Of a stretch of DNA of 64,000 nt, positions 37,177 to 47,504 are shown piece after piece. Under the pieces are notes generated by a model. That model ran no database searches and had not been told where the DNA came from. It saw only the letters and a program-made list of their open reading frames with translations. The DNA comes from an uncultured Planctomycetales bacterium (GTDB lineage: Bacteria > 4484-113 > JAFGCY01): assembly GCA_964609245.1 (NCBI GenBank), contig CAZSSB010000001.1, positions 79,836 through 143,835 on the forward strand. The letters are read 5' to 3'. A program made the translations under genes and the position numbers. Position 1 is the first letter of the stretch, and each line of letters opens with the position of its first letter.

Positions 37177-37310
37177 GTTCCTTCCGGCAAGTACAGCCTT
37201 TGTTACCATCGCTCGGTCGACAAATGGCGTAGCTGCCCCTCTGGTTCTGGTGAGACTAACCGCACATTATAACAACCGGTGGCCTGTGCCGGGGGTCCGG
37301 AAGCACCGCC

Positions 37311-38123
37311 GTGGCGGCTGAGGAGCGCAGACACCGCGCCATACTGGTGGGGATCAGCCCGCATGCCGAGAGCGACGCCGTGGTGCGGCTGTTCGCGGAC
37401 GGCCGGGGCGCGCTGGTGGCCCGCGCCCGTGGGCTGCGCAAGGCACAGAGCAAGCTGGCGCCGCGGCTGCAGCCCGCCGACGAGCTGGAGGTGCGGACCG
37501 CGGCCGGCCGCGGCGGGGTGGGGCTGCTGATCGGCGTCGAGCCGGTCCGAAGCCATCCACACTGGCGCGCCGACCTGGGCCTGCTGGCGCTGTACTGGTT
37601 CATGGCGGAATGCCTGTACGTCGGCGCCGGTGAAGAGCAGGTCAACGCCGACATGTACCGCCTGCTGGCGAACCTGCTGCGCAGTGAACCGGACGGCGAG
37701 CTGCGCTATGGCGCGGCGGCGGTGTTCAGCCTGAAGCTGCTGGGGCTGCACGGCCTGCTGGCCGACCTGAGCTGCTGCGCGCTCGACGGCCACGCGCTGG
37801 CGCCGGACGAACCGGCCCACCTGCTGCCCCGCGGGGACGGGCTGGTGGGCCGCGCGGCCTATAACGAGCACTACGCGCGCAGCGGCGGCGGCATGCTCAG
37901 GCTCGATGCGGAGCGGCGGCGGCGCTGGCTGACGCTGCTGACCGGCGCGCTGCTGGACTATCCCGCGGTAGGAGCCGACCAGCTGGATGCCGCGTTGCTG
38001 ATTCAGCATGCGGCACGGCTGCTGAGCGGAACTGCGGCCGCCCCGATCCGCAGCGTGCAGTTCCTGGTGCAGCAGTGGCGGCTGCCCACCCTTGAGGAGT
38101 TGCTGCGCGACCAGCACCTCTAG
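37311..38123 (+). CDS. recO: DNA repair protein RecO
   Basis: OB-fold N-terminus (AILVGISPHAESDAVVRLFADGRGALVARARGLRKAQSKLAPRLQP), FSLKLLGLHGLLADLSCCALDG, and C-terminal IRSVQFLVQQW. Length and motif order fit RecO. Confidence 0.7.
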   Translation: MAAEERRHRAILVGISPHAESDAVVRLFADGRGALVARARGLRKAQSKLAPRLQPADELEVRTAAGRGGVGLLIGVEPVRSHPHWRADLGLLALYWFMAECLYVGAGEEQVNADMYRLLANLLRSEPDGELRYGAAAVFSLKLLGLHGLLADLSCCALDGHALAPDEPAHLLPRGDGLVGRAAYNEHYARSGGGMLRLDAERRRRWLTLLTGALLDYPAVGADQLDAALLIQHAARLLSGTAAAPIRSVQFLVQQWRLPTLEELLRDQHL

Positions 38124-38152: not shown

Positions 38153-38659
38153 TTAGCTCGACTGGCTTTCGAGCAGGGAGATCAGCTTCAGCAGACGCGG
38201 ATCGTCGGTGAGGCCGCGGGCCTGTTTCAGAGCCTTCAGTCCGGCCTCCAGGTCGCCGCGCTGGACGAACAGCGCCGCCGCGACCAGCGCCACCACCGCC
38301 GGCTGGCTGGCCAGTTCCTCCTGGGGCAGCGCCTGCAGCTCCCGCTGCGCCGTTTCGCCGTCGCCCTGCGAGATGTGCTGAATGACGCGCAGCATCCCGC
38401 GGCTGGCTGCGGGCGCGGCTGCGGCGGCCCCCGACTCGGCGGGCTGGTCCGGCTCGCCGGTGGGCGGGTCGGCCAGCAGCACGGGCGGCTGGGGCTCGGC
38501 GGGCCGCGGGGGGCCGTCGGGGCCCTGCTGCGCCACGAGCTGCACCAGGTTGCCGAGGCGGTCCGACAGCTCGTCCACGCGCTGCTCCAGCTCCAGCAGC
38601 CGGATGCGGATCGCCGTCAGTTCGCCGTCGGGCGGGGTGGAGGCCTCGCTATCGGTCAT
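38153..38659 (-). CDS. Coiled-coil / Pro-rich / TPR-like small protein, last gene of the pseudokinase-giant operon
   Basis: Its start overlaps the stop of the 1800-aa gene by 4 nt (38656-38659). It has an N-terminal heptad-like LTAIRIRLLELEQRVDELSDRLGNLVQLV, a Pro-rich linker and a helical C-terminus. Confidence 0.7.
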   Translation of the reverse strand: MTDSEASTPPDGELTAIRIRLLELEQRVDELSDRLGNLVQLVAQQGPDGPPRPAEPQPPVLLADPPTGEPDQPAESGAAAAAPAASRGMLRVIQHISQGDGETAQRELQALPQEELASQPAVVALVAAALFVQRGDLEAGLKALKQARGLTDDPRLLKLISLLESQSS

Positions 38660-41600
38660 GACCGGCCGTCGTCCTCCTCGGGCTCCTCCGGGACGCCCAG
38701 CATCGACAGGATCTCGCCCAGGATCTCCTGCTGCCGGTCATCCCGCGGCTCGGGCGCCGCGGCGCGGTCTTGCTGGTCGGCGCTGGCGTAGAGGGCCTGC
38801 AGACGCTGGCGGCTGTCGCGGTAGTTGTGCTTGAGCACCAGGATCTGCTCCAGGCAGCGGACCGCGGCCTCGCGGTCCTGGCGCTGCTCGTAGGCGGTGG
38901 CCATCCCGTAGAGCGCGCGCAGCCGCAGCTCGTTGTGCTCGGTGTCGTCACCCAGGCGGCGCAGGACGTCCTCGAAGGCCCTCAGCGAGATGCGGTAGTC
39001 GCCGGTCAGCACGAAGCACTCGCCCAGCTCGACCGAGAGCAGCGGACTGCCCTGGCCGCGGTCGAGGCCGGCCTGCAGCTCGCCGATGGCCTCGACCGGC
39101 TCGTCGACGGCGCACAGCAGGCGCGCGATCTCGATGGTGCGCTCGACGCTGTCCGGCTCGCCGCGCAGCTGCTCGATCCGCTGGCGGTTGATCGCCGTGG
39201 CCAGCTCGGCCTGACGCCGCTTGGCGGGCTCCTGATCGGGCAGCAGCTCCAGCGCCGCGCTGACGCGCTGGTGGGCCTGTTCCAGGTCACCGGCTTCCTC
39301 GACCAGCTGCGAGAGGCGCAGCTGGGCCGCCGCGCGGATGTGGAGGTCGGCCTGTTTGTCGCGGGTGGCCTGCTCATACAGCCGCTGGGCCGCGGCCGGA
39401 TCGCCCTGCAGCTCCTTGAGCTGCGCGGCACGGTACTTGAGGTCGCCGCCCGGTTGCTCTTCCAGCCAGCCGGACGGCAGCGGATTGCTGGTGGCGTGGG
39501 CCCAGACCAGGTGGTCGGCGGCCAGCGGCAATTCGCCCGCTTCGCGCAGGTGACCGACCAGCCAGCGGCGGGCGGCCGTCGATGCCGGGGTGCTGAGCAG
39601 CGCCTCGGCCAGCGCGGTTGCGGCAGCCGTGTGTTCGTCCAGCGCGGCGCTGCCCAGGGCCTCGAGCGCCGTCGCCGCCGCCTCGTGATCGCCCCGCAGC
39701 AGGTGGACTTCCACCAGCGCCACCTGCTGGGCGACGGCATATTCGTCGGTCGCCAGCTGGGTGAGCACGTCAAGCGCCAGCTGCGCCAGGTCGTCGTCCT
39801 CCAAGATGAAGTTGAGCGCCAGCTGCCAGGCCCGGGCCTGGTCGCCGAGCTGCCCGAACAGCTGCAGCAGCAGCCGGATCAGGCCGGGGCTGTCCGCGGA
39901 GTCGCGGATCAGCGCCAGCACGGTGCGGATCAGCTGGTGGACCTCGCCGGTGGGCAGGTCCGCGTCGCGGGCGGCGAGCAGCTGCTCGACGAACTCCTGG
40001 CGGCCGCTCTCCGTGCTGAGATCCAGCAGCTGCAGGCGGGCCAGCAGCACCGGCGCCACGTTGCTCGCCACGCGCTGGTATTCGCTGAGCGCCTTGAGCG
40101 CCTGCTCGCGTCCGGCCGGGCTGGTCTCGGCCAGCTTGCGGGCGGCCAGCGCGACCGCGGTGAGGTCGTCCCGCAGCACGGCGGCGCGCATCTGCAGGGC
40201 GTGCAGTTCCTGCCAGCGCGCGGACTCCTCCGGCAGCTGGCTGGCATCGAAGCCGGCCAAAGCTTCCAGCAGCTCGGGGCCCGGCTCATCGACCAGCTGC
40301 CAGGCCTGCTGCACGTAGCCCAGCGCCTCCTCGGCCTGATTCAGTTTCAGTGCCAGGTGATGCAGGTGCAGCGCCAGCTCGCAGCGCTGCTCGGGGGACA
40401 GCTCGACGCGCTCGGCGTTGTTCCACAGCTCGCTGGCAAGTTCATACAGCTCGTCAGCCGACCAGCGCGGCAGCAGCCAGGTCAGCGCCGACAGCGCCCA
40501 GCCCCAGTCGCCGGGCCGCTCGGACTGCGCCACGCATTTCAGCGCCAGCAGGTGCAGCGGATACTGCATCGGGTTGGGCGCCAGCGCGCCGTGGTGGCGC
40601 AGCTGGGTCAGGATCGGCACGGCCAGGCTGGCGTCCTGCTCCAGCGCCGCGGCGTATTCCTCGGCGCTGTCCTGCCACAGATTGACGCGGATATAGGCCT
40701 GGCCCAGCTGCATGCTGGCGCCCGGACCCCCGCCGCTGTCGCGGATCTCGGCCAGCAGCGGCGCGTACTCCGGATAGTCGCGGACGGTATCGCGCAGGCC
40801 GGCCAGGCGGTCCAGGGCGTCCTCGGTGCGGCCGGCCATGAACAGCAGGCGTCCCCAGGTGACCACCAGCGCCGTGGGCATCCCGCCATCCTCGAGGGCC
40901 AGCTTGTCGAACAGCTCCAGCAGGCTGGCAGCGGCGTCAGGCCCCTGGGCGAGGATCCCTTCAATCAACTCGTGGGCTTCCTCGCCCTGGCCGTGCAATG
41001 CCGCCAGGATCAGCCGGAGGTGCCGCGCGTCCACGTTGTCTTCGGCGCTGGCCAGTGGCTCGGCGATCTCCGTCGAGAGGCTGCCGACCACCTTGCGCAT
41101 CTCGCTGTCGCGGTCCTGGTAGATCTGCACGAGCCTGAGCAGGTGCTTGGTCGCCAGCGCGTAGTTGGGATTCGGCCCGGCCAGTTGCAGGGTGATCAGT
41201 TCGCGCAGCACCGCCTCGGCGTCCCCGCCGGCCTCGGCCACTTGCGCGGCGAGGGCGGCGGCCGCCTCGTGGGCGCCCTGCCCGCACAGCTCACGGACGG
41301 CGCTCAGCGCGCGCGCCTGGTCGCCGGCGGCCAGGGCCAGTCGCCCCAGCTGCTCGACGTGCTCGCTGGTGGTCGCGGTCAGGCCCAGGGTCTCCAGGGT
41401 GTCGAGGCACCACTGTGGGTCGCCGGTGGCCTCGGCCGTGGTTGTCAGCGTCTCCAGCGCCGCGGCTGGCTGCTCGGCCTGCAGCGCCTCGGCCACCACT
41501 TCGGCGGCTTCGCGCAGCAGCTCGGGGGGGTCGCCCGCGGGCAGCAGCTGCGGCAGGGCCGCCTTCAGCGCCTCGAGGGCCTCTTCATCGCCGCCGCGGG

Positions 41601-44058
41601 ACAGCTTGAGCAGATGGCGCAGGTGTTCGGCGGGATCACCGAACTGGCGCCCGGAGGCCAGCAGGTAGCGGGCCGCGGGCTCGAAGCCGGCGTCGCACAG
41701 CTCCTGCAGCGCCTGGTCGACAAACGCGCGGATGTCTGCGGCGGATGCTTCCGTGGACTCGTCGGTCAGCCGCGCGTCAAGGCAGCGGACCAGTTCCAGC
41801 TGCTGATCCGGGCCGCGGCTGGCCAGCAGGCCGTGCATTTGCTCGGCGGCTTCGCGCAGGCTGTCGGCGGGCAGCTGATCGCAGAGCAGTTTAACCGGCA
41901 CCAACGCCTGCTCGGCGGGATCGATCTCGGCGATCATCTCGACCGCGCGCTGCCAGTCGCCCTGCCGGGCCAGGGTCTCGCACTCGACCAGCAGCCGCGC
42001 GCCGGCCGGGACCGGCACACCCAGCTCCTCGGCCAGCGAGAGCGCGACTTGCGGCTCGACCTGCTGGGCCGCGGCCTGCAGCGCCGCCGGAATCTGCTCC
42101 GCAGTCCCGGTGCCGGCTACGAACATCAGGTACAGCCGCGTCCACTGAATCCGCAGCTGCGGCTGCCCGTCGTCGGGCATCGCGTCGAGCAGCGGCCTAA
42201 GTTCACTGAGCCACTCCAGCGGCTCGGCCGGCAGCTGCTCGCCGGCGATCTGGGCCAGCGACTCGATCTCACCGACCGCCACCGGCAGCAGCTCGCGGTG
42301 GCCCTCGCTGACGGTCAGATACGTCGCCTGCTGAGCGCGCCGGCGGTGGACCAGCGCGGGATCCAAAGCTTCACGCCACTGGCGGTAGGCCGCTTCGATC
42401 TGCTCATCGTCCGGGGCCAGCAGGCTGGCCGTCGTCGCCGGTTCAAAGCCGGCCTCCGGGTCACTGGAGGCCAGGTGCTGGGTGCGGGCCAGCACCATCA
42501 GCACGGGCGGCGACGGCTCGGCCTGGGCCACAATTTGGGTTTCAAGTGCCGCCAGCAAGCCGCCGCGCTGTTCATCGTTGGCGGGCAGCGTCGCCAGCTG
42601 GTCCAGCGCTGCGGCGTAGTCCTCGCGGGCCAGCTCCAGCCTGGCCAGCAGCGCCGCGGCGGCGGGCTCGGGCTCGTCCGGCAGGCTGGCGCGCAGCAGG
42701 TCCACGATCGCGCCGACGTCGTCCGGATCTTCGATCGCGACGGCATCCAGCAGCTCGGTCAGCCCGGCGAGGTCCTCCTGGGCCAGCAGGCGTCCCGCCA
42801 GCCAGCCGCGCGCCGCGCCGACTTGCCAGGCCGGCTGGTCGGTGGCCGCCAGTTCGCGCAGCAGTGACGCGGCCTCAGCGGCCGTCAGCTCGCCTTCGAA
42901 CGTCGCCGCGAGTTGCTCCTCCAGCTCGGCCGGCGAGCTGCTGGCGGCAAGCGCGTCCATGCTGGTGGGGGTCGCCGTCACCGCGGCCGGCACCTGGGTC
43001 ACCTTGCCCTGGGTGACGGCCTGGGTCAGCAACTGCCCGGCTTCCTCCGGGCGTGCGGTTCCCGCCTGCTCGTGACGCTGATCCCAGCGCTCGACGAGCT
43101 GGGGAATCCGGTCGGGCGGTTCAACCTTGAGTGTCTGTTTGAGGGCGAAGAGCGACAGGCGCGCATCCAGCGGCAGGTGGTCGTGACCCAGCAGGAACTC
43201 GACCAGCCGCTCGCCGTGGATCTGGGCGCGCGTCAGTTTGTCCTGGACCTGATTCCAGCCCAGCTTGCCCTGGGCGAAGTCGTCGAGCACGGGCTCCAGC
43301 ACCAGGCTGTGCAGCCCCCACTCGGCGGCGGGACGCACGCGCAGCAGCTTCTCCGTGGACTCCGCGTAGGCCGGCGGCAGGCGTTCGGCGTCACCGGCGA
43401 TCTCGATCAGCAGCGTCTCCGCCTGCTGTTCCTCCTTGCGGGCCAGCAGGCTGTCCGCCATCAGCAGCTGCACGCTGATCAGGTCCTCGCCCAGCTTGTG
43501 CTTGTTGGCCAGCAGCTCCTTGAGCGCCTCGATCGTCAGGTCCTGCTCGGTCTGCAGCGCGTCCTTCTTGACCAGCTGCAGCAGCTCGTAGGCGTAGTCC
43601 TTCCAATCGTCACTCTCGCCGGTCAGCTGCGCCCGTTCGGCCAGGTATTGCAGCGCGCGTTCCGGCCCCAGGCTGCCCTTGGTGATCCGCCAGCTGAGCA
43701 GCGCCACGCGTTCGGTTTTCAGATGCGTGGGCAGCTCCAGCAGCCGGTCGACGAGCTTCTGCAGGCCCGGCACCACGGCGATCTTGCGGCTGCGGGCGAC
43801 CAATTCGGCAAAGGCCGGATATGCCACAACGCCGTTCTTCAGCGCCAGCGACGCCTCCACCAGCGCCTCGGCCCCGTTGGTCAGCAGCCCGGGATTGGCG
43901 TTGGCCGGCTTGTCCACAACCCCCATGTAGCGTTTGGTGTAGGTCTGGAGTGCGCGCAGCAAGCCGGCTTCCTTGCGCTTCTGCTGCTGCGGATTCAGGC
44001 GGCGAAAAGACTCGACCTGTCTAAGCAGCCCCTTGCCGAAGTCAAAGCCCTTGAACAT
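38656..44058 (-). CDS. Giant (1800 aa) all-alpha helical-repeat protein with C-terminal TPR-like repeats
   Basis: ATG at 44058. Third-position G/C bias is consistent over 5.4 kb and the protein is L/A/E/Q-rich. TPR-like units lie near the C-terminus (LRALYGMATAYEQRQDREAAVRCLEQILVLKHNY). I saw no Walker A, signal peptide or TM segment. Confidence 0.85.
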   Translation of the reverse strand: MFKGFDFGKGLLRQVESFRRLNPQQQKRKEAGLLRALQTYTKRYMGVVDKPANANPGLLTNGAEALVEASLALKNGVVAYPAFAELVARSRKIAVVPGLQKLVDRLLELPTHLKTERVALLSWRITKGSLGPERALQYLAERAQLTGESDDWKDYAYELLQLVKKDALQTEQDLTIEALKELLANKHKLGEDLISVQLLMADSLLARKEEQQAETLLIEIAGDAERLPPAYAESTEKLLRVRPAAEWGLHSLVLEPVLDDFAQGKLGWNQVQDKLTRAQIHGERLVEFLLGHDHLPLDARLSLFALKQTLKVEPPDRIPQLVERWDQRHEQAGTARPEEAGQLLTQAVTQGKVTQVPAAVTATPTSMDALAASSSPAELEEQLAATFEGELTAAEAASLLRELAATDQPAWQVGAARGWLAGRLLAQEDLAGLTELLDAVAIEDPDDVGAIVDLLRASLPDEPEPAAAALLARLELAREDYAAALDQLATLPANDEQRGGLLAALETQIVAQAEPSPPVLMVLARTQHLASSDPEAGFEPATTASLLAPDDEQIEAAYRQWREALDPALVHRRRAQQATYLTVSEGHRELLPVAVGEIESLAQIAGEQLPAEPLEWLSELRPLLDAMPDDGQPQLRIQWTRLYLMFVAGTGTAEQIPAALQAAAQQVEPQVALSLAEELGVPVPAGARLLVECETLARQGDWQRAVEMIAEIDPAEQALVPVKLLCDQLPADSLREAAEQMHGLLASRGPDQQLELVRCLDARLTDESTEASAADIRAFVDQALQELCDAGFEPAARYLLASGRQFGDPAEHLRHLLKLSRGGDEEALEALKAALPQLLPAGDPPELLREAAEVVAEALQAEQPAAALETLTTTAEATGDPQWCLDTLETLGLTATTSEHVEQLGRLALAAGDQARALSAVRELCGQGAHEAAAALAAQVAEAGGDAEAVLRELITLQLAGPNPNYALATKHLLRLVQIYQDRDSEMRKVVGSLSTEIAEPLASAEDNVDARHLRLILAALHGQGEEAHELIEGILAQGPDAAASLLELFDKLALEDGGMPTALVVTWGRLLFMAGRTEDALDRLAGLRDTVRDYPEYAPLLAEIRDSGGGPGASMQLGQAYIRVNLWQDSAEEYAAALEQDASLAVPILTQLRHHGALAPNPMQYPLHLLALKCVAQSERPGDWGWALSALTWLLPRWSADELYELASELWNNAERVELSPEQRCELALHLHHLALKLNQAEEALGYVQQAWQLVDEPGPELLEALAGFDASQLPEESARWQELHALQMRAAVLRDDLTAVALAARKLAETSPAGREQALKALSEYQRVASNVAPVLLARLQLLDLSTESGRQEFVEQLLAARDADLPTGEVHQLIRTVLALIRDSADSPGLIRLLLQLFGQLGDQARAWQLALNFILEDDDLAQLALDVLTQLATDEYAVAQQVALVEVHLLRGDHEAAATALEALGSAALDEHTAAATALAEALLSTPASTAARRWLVGHLREAGELPLAADHLVWAHATSNPLPSGWLEEQPGGDLKYRAAQLKELQGDPAAAQRLYEQATRDKQADLHIRAAAQLRLSQLVEEAGDLEQAHQRVSAALELLPDQEPAKRRQAELATAINRQRIEQLRGEPDSVERTIEIARLLCAVDEPVEAIGELQAGLDRGQGSPLLSVELGECFVLTGDYRISLRAFEDVLRRLGDDTEHNELRLRALYGMATAYEQRQDREAAVRCLEQILVLKHNYRDSRQRLQALYASADQQDRAAAPEPRDDRQQEILGEILSMLGVPEEPEEDDGRS

Positions 44059-44096
44059 CCGCTGTTCCTGACCTACCTACTGGCTTTCTCTATACA

Positions 44097-44801
44097 CTAC
44101 AGGTCGGCGGTGATACAGTCCAGCAGCACCTGGCGGATCGCGGTCCCCAGCGCCCTGTATCCACCGGCCGGGTCCTCGGCCCATAACTCCGCCGCCGTTC
44201 GCAGCGCGCGGTGATTCTCCGTATCCGGCTCTTCCGGTCCGATCAGCTGCCCCAGCAGCTTGAGCGCGCCGCGGCGCTCGGCCTCCAACTCGTCGGCCGG
44301 CGCCTCCGCCTGCGCGCGGTTGAAACCCGCCAGGCGCACCCAGCGCACCAGGGGCGTGGCCCACAGGTTCTCCAGGTCCAGGCCGCCGTGGACGACGGGT
44401 TGATCCATCGTCTGCAGAAACTGGATCACGTCCAGCACGTCGGCGGCCAGGCGCACGCGGTCGGTGGCGGGCAGCGAGTCCAGCAGCGTCGCCGTCAGCG
44501 GCTGCTCCGCCTGCCAGGCGAACAGCAGGAAGGGGGTGGAGGAAGCCTGCGGCTCATCGACCAGCTGCAGGACGTGGGGGTGCTGGATCCCTCCCAGAAT
44601 CGCGTGTTCGGCGGCGATCCGCTGGTCGGATTCGGCGGTACCGTCCGGGCACTTGATCCAGAAGCGCTGCCCGGTGCCGCGATCGCGACCCAGGTAGACG
44701 GGTTCCGTAGTGGTAACCAGGTCCAGCCGGGACTCCAGCAGGAAGCCCGCCTGAACGACGTCCGGTGCTCCGGTTACCTCGGTGGCACGTGCGGTGAACA
44801 T
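44097..44801 (-). CDS. Protein-kinase-like domain protein with degenerate catalytic motifs (predicted pseudokinase)
   Basis: Kinase-like order: LGRDRGTGQRFWIKC (G-loop and Lys), AAEHAILGGIQHPHVLQLVD (alphaC Glu plus HPxhhxL), VVHGGLDLENLW in place of HRDLKPEN, and LAGFNRA in place of DFG. Confidence 0.65.
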   Translation of the reverse strand: MFTARATEVTGAPDVVQAGFLLESRLDLVTTTEPVYLGRDRGTGQRFWIKCPDGTAESDQRIAAEHAILGGIQHPHVLQLVDEPQASSTPFLLFAWQAEQPLTATLLDSLPATDRVRLAADVLDVIQFLQTMDQPVVHGGLDLENLWATPLVRWVRLAGFNRAQAEAPADELEAERRGALKLLGQLIGPEEPDTENHRALRTAAELWAEDPAGGYRALGTAIRQVLLDCITADL

Positions 44802-45041
44802 GCGCCTGTCTTCTCCTCCAGAGGAGGATTCTACCTAGTACTGCATCAACCCTCGATAACGCATGCCGCCCAAGCGGCGTGACTTCAGTCCACGAAATAC
44901 ATAACTACGGTGACCGCTGTCCGTCATGAAACCCTGACGCGACTCAATCGGCTACCCACAATTATATCTGAGTGGCGCCGCCGATAAACGGTTTCAACGC
45001 AGGTTTAACCGAATCCCCGGCTTGAGCCTGTGGCTGTGACT

Positions 45042-45069
45042 GGGGCCCACCTGAGATCAGGCGGGCCCC
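45042..45069 (-). terminator. Strong GC hairpin downstream of flgE
   Basis: On the mRNA strand GGGGCCCGCCUGA pairs with UCAGGUGGGCCCC (13 bp including one G-U). No U-tract. Confidence 0.5.
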
Positions 45070-45079
45070 AGTGCGGCTA

Positions 45080-45095
45080 CCGGCGCTGACGCCGG
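45080..45095 (-). terminator. Short hairpin immediately after the flgE stop codon
   Basis: ccggcg / ctga / cgccgg palindrome at 45080-45095, abutting the stop at 45096-45098. Confidence 0.35.
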
Positions 45096-47504
45096 CTACC
45101 GTTTCAGGTTGACGATCTCGTTGAGGATCTCGTCCTGGGTGGTGAACACGCGGCTGTTGGCCTGGAGGCCGCGCTGCGTGATGATCAGATTGGTGAATTC
45201 CAGCGACATGTCGATGTTGGACTGCTCCACGTAGCCGCTGAACACCACGCCCGCGCCACCGGTGCCGGGCTGCAGCTTGACCGCCGAGCCCGAGTTGGTG
45301 GTGGACTGGAACGTGGTGGCGCCCAGCCGCTGCAGACCCTCGGGGTTGCTGAAGGTCGCCAGTGACAGCTGCGCGATCGGCCGCCGCTGGCCGTTGTCGA
45401 AGAAGGCGATGATCGTGCCGCTGGCGTCGGCCTCGAAGTCGGAGAGCACGCCCATCGCGTAACCGTCCTGCTCGCGGGCCGCCGTCGTGGTGGCCGAGGC
45501 GAACTGGGTGATGCCGTCAATCATGTTGCCGCCGCCGTCGAAGATCAGATCCACGGACGACTGCGAGGCGCCGGGGGCGGTGAACTGCACCGGATTGGCG
45601 GCGTTGCCGCTGGTGAGCAGGCCGTCGATGCTGAACTCCATGCGGCCGGTGGTATTGGTCAGCAGGATGTTGGGCTCCTCCGGCAGACTGACCTCGTAGT
45701 CCCAGATGTTCTCGTTGACGTGGGTGAACGTGACGGTCAGGTTGTGGGCGTTGCCCAGTGAGTCGTAGACCAGCCGGCTGGTGGTGTGGCGGAAGGCGTC
45801 CTCGGTGCGGAAGGTGGCCTGGCCGGCGCCCAGCTCATCGATGCTGATGTTGACGCCCGGCAGCAGCGGGAAGGTGGCGCTGGCGCCCTGGATGGCGGTC
45901 TGCACCGCGGAGAGCGTGCTGCTGACGTAGTTCTGCGTCGGCGCGCCGTCGGGCGGCGATGCCACCAGCAGCGGCGGAATCTCCGGCGTGTAGGCCCAGT
46001 CCTCGTAGAACCGCGTCAGCGGCTGCGAGCCGTCGTCGGGGGTGAACACCAGTTCCGCCTGCGCGTTGATGCCGTTGTCGATGACGCCGACGTCGTTAAC
46101 CGCGTCCCAGCCGGCCAGTGAGGTCAGGCCCCAGCGCGAGGCGGCGCCGGGCGCCACGCTGTCGTCGATGTAGATGTCGACGCTCTCATAGCCCGCCAAC
46201 ACGTTGGGTGCCACGCGGGCGGTGTAGTCGGCCTGCTGCTGCTGGCCCTCGAAGGCGTGGGTGAAGGTGATTGTGCCGTTGGCGTTAGCGGTGGCGACGA
46301 CCGAGATGTCGGGCGTGTTGTTGATCTCGTTGGCCAGGATCACGGCGTTCTGGGCCGCGGTGTTGGTGATGGCGTAGGTGTCGGCGAGGGTGACCTGTAC
46401 GCCGTTGATGAACAGCGAGTCACCCGTCACCGGGGCGTTGACGCCCGTACCGACCGGTACCGAGGTGGTGTCGGTCGCGGCCTTGGCGTCGGTCACCGTA
46501 ATCGAGTTGCGTCCGACCAGGAACTTGCCCGGCTCGGTCGCTGCCGCGATCGTGGTGGCCACCGACGGCAGTCCGGTCAGCGGCGCCAGCGAGGCGTCGA
46601 TGGTGAACGAGGTGCCGGGGCTCACGGACTGGATGTAGACCTGGTACTCGTTGTTGTCGTTCTGCACCACGGTGGCCTGCACCTGCTTGTTGAGGATGTC
46701 GTTGTAGTTGATCATGTCGGCGATGATCTGGCTGTACTCCTGGGGATCGGCGGCGTTGACGCCCACCGGGGGCAGCGTCAGGATTTCGCCGTTGATGTCC
46801 AGCGTCTCGGTGCCGCCGACCACCGGGTAGTTGAGCGGGTCGTCGTCGACCGGGTTGCCGACCAGGGTCGCCCAGGGCTGGGCGGCGCCGGCGAAGGTCA
46901 GGATCCCCGTGGTGCCGACGCTGGCGGTCTCGTTGTTGGCGCTGCCGTAGCGGAAGCTGGCGCTGTCGAGGTTGCTGGCGAAGTCCAGCCAGGTCGAGGG
47001 CCGGGCCTCGAGCTTCTTGCCGAACTCGATGATGATGTCGCCCGTGCCCTTGCCGGGATCGACGGCGGTGCCGTCGGAGTTGAGCTGGTTGTAGCCCTGC
47101 AGCCGGTAGCCGTCGCCGGAGACCAGCGCGCCGTTGCGGTCGAGGCTGAAGTTGCCGGCCCGGGTGTAGATCTCCTGGTTGCCGCTCAGCACGATGAAGA
47201 AGCCGGCGCCGTTGATCGCGAAGTCGGTCGGCCGGGCCGTGTTCTCCAGCGCCGACTGCTGCATCAGCGTCTGGATCGCCGCGACCTGCATACCGAGGCC
47301 GACCTGGCGGGGATTGGTGCCGCCGACGACGTCCGACGGCGCGCTGGCGCCGCGCAGCGTCTGACTGAGCACGTCGGCGAACAACAGGCTGGAGCCCTTG
47401 TAGCCCGCCGAGTTGACGTTGGCGAGATTGTTGGCGATCACGTCGATGCGCAATTGGTGGTTGCGCAAGCCGGTCGCCGCAGTGAAGAATGCACTTCCTG
47501 CCAT
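45096..47504 (-). CDS. flgE: Flagellar hook protein FlgE (unusually long, 802 aa)
   Basis: N-terminus FTAATGLRNHQLRIDVIANNLANVNSAGYK and C-terminus GYVEQSNIDMSLEFTNLIITQRGLQANSRVFTTQDEILNEIVNL are the canonical rod/hook terminal segments. A GGAGGA ribosome-binding site lies 6 nt upstream. Confidence 0.93.
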   Translation of the reverse strand: MAGSAFFTAATGLRNHQLRIDVIANNLANVNSAGYKGSSLLFADVLSQTLRGASAPSDVVGGTNPRQVGLGMQVAAIQTLMQQSALENTARPTDFAINGAGFFIVLSGNQEIYTRAGNFSLDRNGALVSGDGYRLQGYNQLNSDGTAVDPGKGTGDIIIEFGKKLEARPSTWLDFASNLDSASFRYGSANNETASVGTTGILTFAGAAQPWATLVGNPVDDDPLNYPVVGGTETLDINGEILTLPPVGVNAADPQEYSQIIADMINYNDILNKQVQATVVQNDNNEYQVYIQSVSPGTSFTIDASLAPLTGLPSVATTIAAATEPGKFLVGRNSITVTDAKAATDTTSVPVGTGVNAPVTGDSLFINGVQVTLADTYAITNTAAQNAVILANEINNTPDISVVATANANGTITFTHAFEGQQQQADYTARVAPNVLAGYESVDIYIDDSVAPGAASRWGLTSLAGWDAVNDVGVIDNGINAQAELVFTPDDGSQPLTRFYEDWAYTPEIPPLLVASPPDGAPTQNYVSSTLSAVQTAIQGASATFPLLPGVNISIDELGAGQATFRTEDAFRHTTSRLVYDSLGNAHNLTVTFTHVNENIWDYEVSLPEEPNILLTNTTGRMEFSIDGLLTSGNAANPVQFTAPGASQSSVDLIFDGGGNMIDGITQFASATTTAAREQDGYAMGVLSDFEADASGTIIAFFDNGQRRPIAQLSLATFSNPEGLQRLGATTFQSTTNSGSAVKLQPGTGGAGVVFSGYVEQSNIDMSLEFTNLIITQRGLQANSRVFTTQDEILNEIVNLKR

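Follow-up and report, generated by a model that had tools for sequence, protein, structure and literature searches.

The window analysed here is a stretch of 64,000 nucleotides of contig CAZSSB010000001.1 (positions 79,836 to 143,835, forward strand), from the assembly GCA_964609245.1 of an uncultured Planctomycetales bacterium. Downstream of a series of flagellar hook genes it carries an operon of three genes, whose products are a pseudokinase (pK), a very large helical-repeat protein (the giant) and a coiled-coil protein (cc). The three genes, referred to as the trio, are the following:

44097-44801, minus strand: gene 1, pK, a stand-alone pseudokinase of 234 amino acids
38656-44058, minus strand: gene 2, the giant, an acidic cytoplasmic alpha-solenoid of 1800 amino acids
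38153-38659, minus strand: gene 3, cc, a protein of 168 amino acids with a coiled coil, a linker and a TPR-like C-terminal domain

An initial annotation, made from the sequence alone, had placed three minus-strand genes here, and the open reading frames (ORFs) were re-found at these positions. The 38 nucleotides separating pK from the giant, the ATGA in which the start codon of cc overlaps the stop codon of the giant, and a TATAAT box at 44961-44966 could all be read off the sequence as described. The genome to which the window belongs has a G+C content of 67%, and long ORFs are found on the opposite strand too, such as one of 1365 amino acids at 38770-42867 (plus strand). The G+C content of third codon positions (GC3) is 0.87-0.92 in the trio genes and 0.95 in flgE, versus 0.74-0.81 in the long opposite-strand shadow ORFs, where the G+C content of first positions exceeds that of third positions. 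The codon-position G+C thus identifies the minus strand as the coding strand for the trio. Full-length orthologues are present in at least 16 genomes or contigs, and the three genes are real and not shadow frames. They are single-copy, a paralogue search of the genome having given none. In every relative the start of cc either overlaps the stop of the giant or lies at most 31 nucleotides away, a junction which would fit translational coupling of the two genes.

Searched alone, pK stays below the gathering cut-off of the Pfam kinase family PF00069 Pkinase (19.9 bits, E = 5e-4, cut-off 31.7). A profile of the pK family, built from eight members, matches 553 kinase sequences of the PDB with a best E value of 4e-7, and the alignment spans the N-lobe through to the DFG position. 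The AlphaFold2 model of pK has a mean predicted local distance difference test score (pLDDT) of 87 and a predicted template modelling (TM) score of 0.84. Compared to the PDB by Foldseek, this model had at least 1,892 matches up to an E value of 0.001, whose TM scores are 0.6-0.7; all of the 50 matches listed were kinase domains. On the strength of the profile and the model a bilobal protein-kinase fold can be predicted for pK with confidence. When the profile was run against 5.8 billion proteins, nothing beyond orthologues and generic kinase matches was found.

The residue counts below refer to eight aligned relatives. The position of the HRD aspartate is occupied by G, R, E or S and that of the DFG aspartate by G or S, with no Asp at either position in any of the eight. 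The prediction of a pseudokinase is borne out in both its parts, the kinase fold and the loss of these two aspartates in every aligned relative. The family has 18 invariant residues, among them six Arg, three Trp and one His and none of them acidic; Asp, Glu, Asn and Lys are invariant at no position of the eight aligned sequences. Lacking a metal ligand or a catalytic base, pK is unlikely to perform phosphotransfer or nucleotidyl transfer. At the position of the glycine-rich loop the window's pK reads LDLVTTTEPVY, without any glycine. The motif GRDRGTG, which the initial annotation took for this loop, was wrongly assigned: when the profile is aligned to ULK3, the motif lies past the Gly-loop position and ahead of the VAIK strand. 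The alanine of the VAIK motif, which contacts adenine in active kinases, is replaced by an invariant tryptophan (Trp48) in the pK family. The VAIK lysine (K50) is present in six of the eight relatives, and in the two relatives which have lost it the alphaC Glu position is occupied by Ala. The activation segment is shortened and has no APE motif.

Two other ORFs of the window's genome, and no more, carry kinase domains, and a possible role of pK is that of an allosteric partner of an active kinase. One 1018 amino acid ORF (G000:C23:33633-35198) has two tandem kinase domains, of which the first is below the Pfam cut-off and may represent a second pseudokinase, here fused to an active kinase.

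The giant has a net charge of -124 and a highest 19-residue hydropathy of 1.19, so that no transmembrane segment is present. The Walker A motif ([AG]xxxxGK[ST]) is missing from all three trio proteins, and none of them matches an NTPase family, a result at odds with a STAND NTPase (NB-ARC/AAA plus TPR). Along the giant the following regions can be distinguished:

residues 1-345: N-domain, conserved in the alignments
residues ~350-480: linker, variable, expanded by up to ~175 residues in relatives
residues 976-1545: core, free of indels, exactly 570 residues in 10 of 12 sequences
residues ~1540-1760: C-terminal TPRs

The densest invariant stretch of the core is at residues 1040-1210. The only Pfam, NCBIfam or PDB sequence matches of the giant are to TPRs at residues 1540-1760, with all Pfam and NCBIfam matches under the cut-offs; likewise a profile of the giant family found nothing in the PDB except the C-terminal TPRs. 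Orthologues carry precomputed matches to TPR_2, TPR_19 and similar families. The predicted structure of the N-domain (residues 1-345) has a pLDDT of 93 and consists of 18 helices, and its only resemblance in structure comparison is a weak one to generic TPR superhelices (E ~1e-3, TM score 0.2-0.3). Motif searches, profiles and this model agree with the earlier description of a helical-repeat protein with TPR-like units at the C-terminus and with neither Walker A nor transmembrane segment, and the giant is an acidic cytoplasmic alpha-solenoid. Among 5.8 billion proteins homologues of the giant form only 17 clusters, all of them full-length (1,800-1,990 amino acids) and from records labelled just "bacterium" or "Planctomycetales bacterium". 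An exhaustive search of 1.84 billion representatives with residues 1-1200 gave 28 matches, all orthologues or fragments of orthologues. Over residues 1-1200, which make up about two thirds of the protein, the giant has no relatives beyond its own orthologues.

In cc three parts follow one another from the N-terminus: a heptad segment that is conserved and has profile matches to GCN4-type coiled coils, a variable linker rich in proline and alanine, and a C-terminal domain, also conserved, of ~80 residues, which weakly matches TPR_21 and TPR_14. These profile comparisons uphold the order of coiled coil, proline linker and helical domain originally proposed for the third product.

The pK gene was found in all ten genomes of the window's family, which comprise four genera, and in none of 31 further genomes, which were drawn from the order, the class and groups outside them. 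At every locus of the family long enough to show it the complete trio could be read, confirming the expectation that the three genes would be conserved as a unit in other genomes. A genome of the same genus, G001 (metagenome-assembled genome Zod_Metabat.1143, JAFGCY01), is assigned to the GTDB phylum UBP7_A, class and order 4484-113 (PMC9040765). The trio is a vertically inherited core feature of one UBP7_A family. We know of no cultured member of this phylum. At one locus (L027:5981-7100) the pseudokinase region contains in-frame stops and frameshifts, and the first ~88 codons of the giant are in another frame, with the remaining 5.6 kb of the giant intact. These lesions reflect either local decay of the genes or a local assembly error.

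Between the trio and the hook gene flgE, which precedes it, lie three features:

44961-44968, minus strand: -10 element GATATAAT, conserved among relatives
44802-44960, minus strand: 5' leader of ~150-160 nucleotides, with a hairpin (44919-44943) that is conserved and the ribosome-binding site GGAGGAG
45040-45096, minus strand: two perfect G+C-rich hairpins directly after the flgE stop, without U-tract

In eight of 12 relatives the GATATAAT box is found 144-169 nucleotides 5' of the pK start codon, including two relatives in which the gene upstream is not flagellar. In the window's genome, G000, the hexamer TATAAT is three-fold over-represented (435 found versus 148 expected), while TATAAA, TTATAA, AATATA and TAATAT are two- to six-fold depleted, which indicates that TATAAT is the general -10 element of this lineage. 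No sigma-28 or sigma-54 motif was found upstream of pK. A scan for consensus promoters and terminators called no promoter here, the -35 region being weak. A TGAAAC box 22-24 nucleotides 5' of the -10 element recurs in the relatives and is not a genome-wide motif. The earlier proposal of an operon with its own TATAAT promoter stands, the box being conserved regardless of which gene lies upstream.

The leader hairpin, just 3' of the -10 box, is conserved among relatives with some compensatory changes, and its loop reads G(G/T)GTT(T/A). About 25 nucleotides further downstream there is another conserved motif, (A/G)GTTA, with GTTA at 44905 and 44860 in the window. The hairpin and the GTTA motifs could be a binding site for a regulator; the leader matches no Rfam family. 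The hairpins after flgE have a folding energy of -55.3 kcal/mol (z = -7.75), and in several relatives terminator-like sequences consisting of a hairpin plus a run of T are found in the same spacer. Probably these hairpins act as a terminator or as an mRNA stabiliser separating the hook operon from the trio.

The position of the trio next to flagellar genes had suggested a functional link to motility, and the upstream neighbour was accordingly compared over 16 distinct trio contexts. In the window the genes upstream are a gene with an MgtE_N domain (ylxF-like), fliK, flgD, a small PF12611 gene and a flgE of 802 amino acids. In 11 of the 16 contexts, across four genera, the trio comes directly after flgE and on the same strand; in four (G009, G001, L025 and L027) it has a non-flagellar upstream neighbour. 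In the context L023 (557-12966) it follows flbD-fliM-fliY-RR-fliO-fliP (RR, response regulator) and not flgE. This flbD to fliP block is on another contig (C19) in the window's genome, from which it follows that the L023 arrangement is a derived rearrangement, again behind a flagellar operon. The -10 box of L023 is degenerate, AAATAAAGT, and read-through from the flagellar operon may matter for this copy of the trio.

Genome G009 has no match to Flg_bbr_C, FHIPEP, FliP or Flagellin_N, versus 5, 1, 1 and 6 matches in its congener G006, and has apparently lost all of its flagellar genes. Its pK gene (L016, C263) abuts a gene for a 236 amino acid protein and an aminotransferase gene, both of which in the window border the far end of the hook block, so that in G009 the block from ylxF to flgE is precisely absent. 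In G009 both pK and the part of the giant gene that is available (785 codons) are intact, with ratios of non-synonymous to synonymous substitution of 0.09-0.19, compared with 0.10-0.20 between flagellate congeners. With its pK and giant genes intact and under purifying selection, the trio keeps its function in a genome without flagellum. Conversely, six flagellate genomes of sister families are without the trio; in three of them flgE is apparently followed directly by fliM-fliN-fliO-fliP, as identified by Pfam in one and by gene size and order in two. The spacer between flgE and pK is a recurrent breakpoint, as expected between two transcription units. A dependence of the trio on the flagellum is refuted, and its adjacency to flgE represents inherited gene order at the boundary of two transcription units. 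The functional motility link of the initial annotation is not sustained, and the adjacency is positional only. Occurrence mostly in non-flagellated organisms, which had been named as evidence against such a link, was observed in part, G009 with its lack of flagellar markers being one such case.

Taking the above together, the explanation to which we give somewhat better than even weight is that the trio forms a self-contained operon for a non-catalytic cytoplasmic scaffold complex, which would not be a part of the flagellum and would not need one. In such a complex the degenerate kinase domain of pK would serve as a protein-binding module with no role as an enzyme, the giant (1,800-2,000 residues in the family) would provide the platform, and cc would be an oligomerising adaptor made in step with the giant by means of translational coupling. 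We infer that the three proteins would bind each other, that their complex would have no enzymatic activity and that its role in the cell would be an organising one. Two observations weigh against this explanation. If the frameshift in the pK of L027 is real, the giant can seemingly do without the pseudokinase. In addition, the trio is adjacent to flgE in 11 of 16 contexts, and the move of the L023 trio behind fliP is unlikely to be due to chance, so that some less direct connection with motility or the cell pole may exist.

This second observation is also what favours a motility or pole factor, for example a cytoplasmic landmark or a regulator which places or controls the flagellum and is co-expressed with the hook genes. 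Its support is the position just 3' of flgE on the same strand in four genera together with the secondary move to a second flagellar operon in L023, for which the probability of coincidence is, as a rough estimate, ~1-2%. We consider it unlikely all the same, given that G009 maintains the trio genes under purifying selection in the absence of hook/rod, FlhA, FliP and flagellin genes, that the six flagellate sister-family genomes do not have the trio and that four contexts are non-flagellar, and also in view of the terminator hairpins after flgE and of a sigma-70-like promoter of its own with no motif for sigma-28 or sigma-54. An atypical active enzyme, which would modify the giant or another substrate through non-canonical residues, is a different matter. 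Several proteins first described as pseudokinases, SelO and SidJ among them, were later recognised as catalytic, and K50 and N145 are both conserved in six of the eight pK relatives. Against this precedent stand the complete lack of invariant Asp, Glu, Asn and Lys, which leaves neither metal ligand nor catalytic base, the missing glycine-rich loop, the invariant tryptophan where adenine would be contacted and the short activation segment without APE motif, and catalysis by pK appears very unlikely. Lowest of all we rate a conflict or defence module made of a TPR sensor and a kinase-like effector, which is hardly probable: pK does weakly match kinase domains of the defence families PD-T4-6 (1e-7), mad6 and MkoA, but the matches are restricted to the generic kinase domain, the giant and cc match nothing in PADLOC, the trio is single-copy and keeps one syntenic location in four genera, and its neighbours include no genes for NTPases, nucleases or mobile elements.

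The non-catalytic scaffold can be compared to a number of known systems. In the atlas of bacterial serine/threonine kinases (bSTK; bioRxiv 10.1101/2025.01.12.632604), fusions of kinases to TPRs recur in five kinase families, TPR being the only domain which recurs beside several of them, and seven pseudokinase families are listed. Like the kinase-TPR Hanks-type kinases PknG, Strep1/2, GN-NS1 and Myxo1, the trio combines a kinase-fold module with TPR-type repeats; unlike the PknG-type fusions, it has them on separate polypeptides, with a dead kinase and with a repeat protein of 1,800-2,000 residues of which two thirds are unmatched. The atlas pseudokinase families (CP1, DYD, ActPs1-3, DLHK and GLW) share with pK the kinase fold without the catalytic triad and are scaffolds or proposed scaffolds. 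Compared by their descriptions, all seven substitute the VAIK lysine, whereas the pK family mostly keeps it. YukC/EssB, also a pseudokinase scaffold, belongs to the type VIIb secretion system (PMC9600267). There it is a membrane component of the machinery, while the pK of the trio is soluble and stands alone.

In the eukaryotic systems STRAD-MO25, SCYL1, ULK4 and Vps15 a kinase domain with little or no activity binds, or is fused to, an ARM, HEAT or TPR solenoid which recruits clients. The trio follows the same logic of a pseudokinase plus a solenoid, although these systems are mostly fused or have a known partner kinase and the homology to the trio is no deeper than that of generic folds. By analogy, the trio might be a bacterial counterpart of such hubs, comparable to STRAD-MO25 or ULK4, and form a large cytoplasmic platform, invented within this one phylum, which would position or regulate cell-pole or envelope machinery, with the flagellum as one client where present; we regard this as doubtful. 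Large TPR proteins are also known from flagellar motors and polar landmarks (PflA/PflB, FlcA, HubP/FimV and SgmX), and the trio resembles these in comprising large TPR/coiled-coil proteins encoded near motility genes. However, PflA, PflB and FlcA are located in the periplasm or anchored in the membrane. The giant lacks both a signal peptide and a transmembrane segment and persists in a genome without flagella, and no sequence similarity was found between the giant and any of these motor and landmark proteins.

The trio is new as a protein family. Pseudokinase scaffolds are well studied in eukaryotes and barely in bacteria, and pK provides a small, soluble, stand-alone bacterial pseudokinase invariably encoded together with a giant and an adaptor, suited to structural and binding work by heterologous expression. 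For UBP7_A the trio is a lineage-defining invention, which belongs to the core of all genomes sampled in the family. It serves as a caution, too, in that conserved adjacency within one family does not equal functional linkage; here the two are uncoupled by a flagellar loss that occurred in nature.

At its 3' end the operon is bounded by a convergent gene:

37311-38123, plus strand: recO, with RecO_N and RecO_C domains, converging on cc

The spacer between recO and cc measures 29 nucleotides, and gene callers put recO at the same place in relatives. A larger cluster of five to six genes was considered, in which the trio would be followed by a 304 amino acid ORF at 37203-38117 (minus strand) conserved in tblastn searches, and was rejected, this ORF being the antisense shadow of recO. 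GC3 is 0.90 for recO versus 0.78 for the shadow ORF. With the ORF recognised as a shadow the operon has exactly three genes. In this high-G+C genome shadow frames can look like conserved genes. Past recO, a gene for a 534 amino acid lipoprotein with a weak cohesin match forms a separate unit.

In the family of the trio, matches to Flagellin_N (G000:C26:26143, C20:1003, C29:28278 and C7:6164, and six loci in G006) are in open frames of ~900 amino acids, and the flagellins thus appear to be giant. The hook protein has 780-800 amino acids in the same family.

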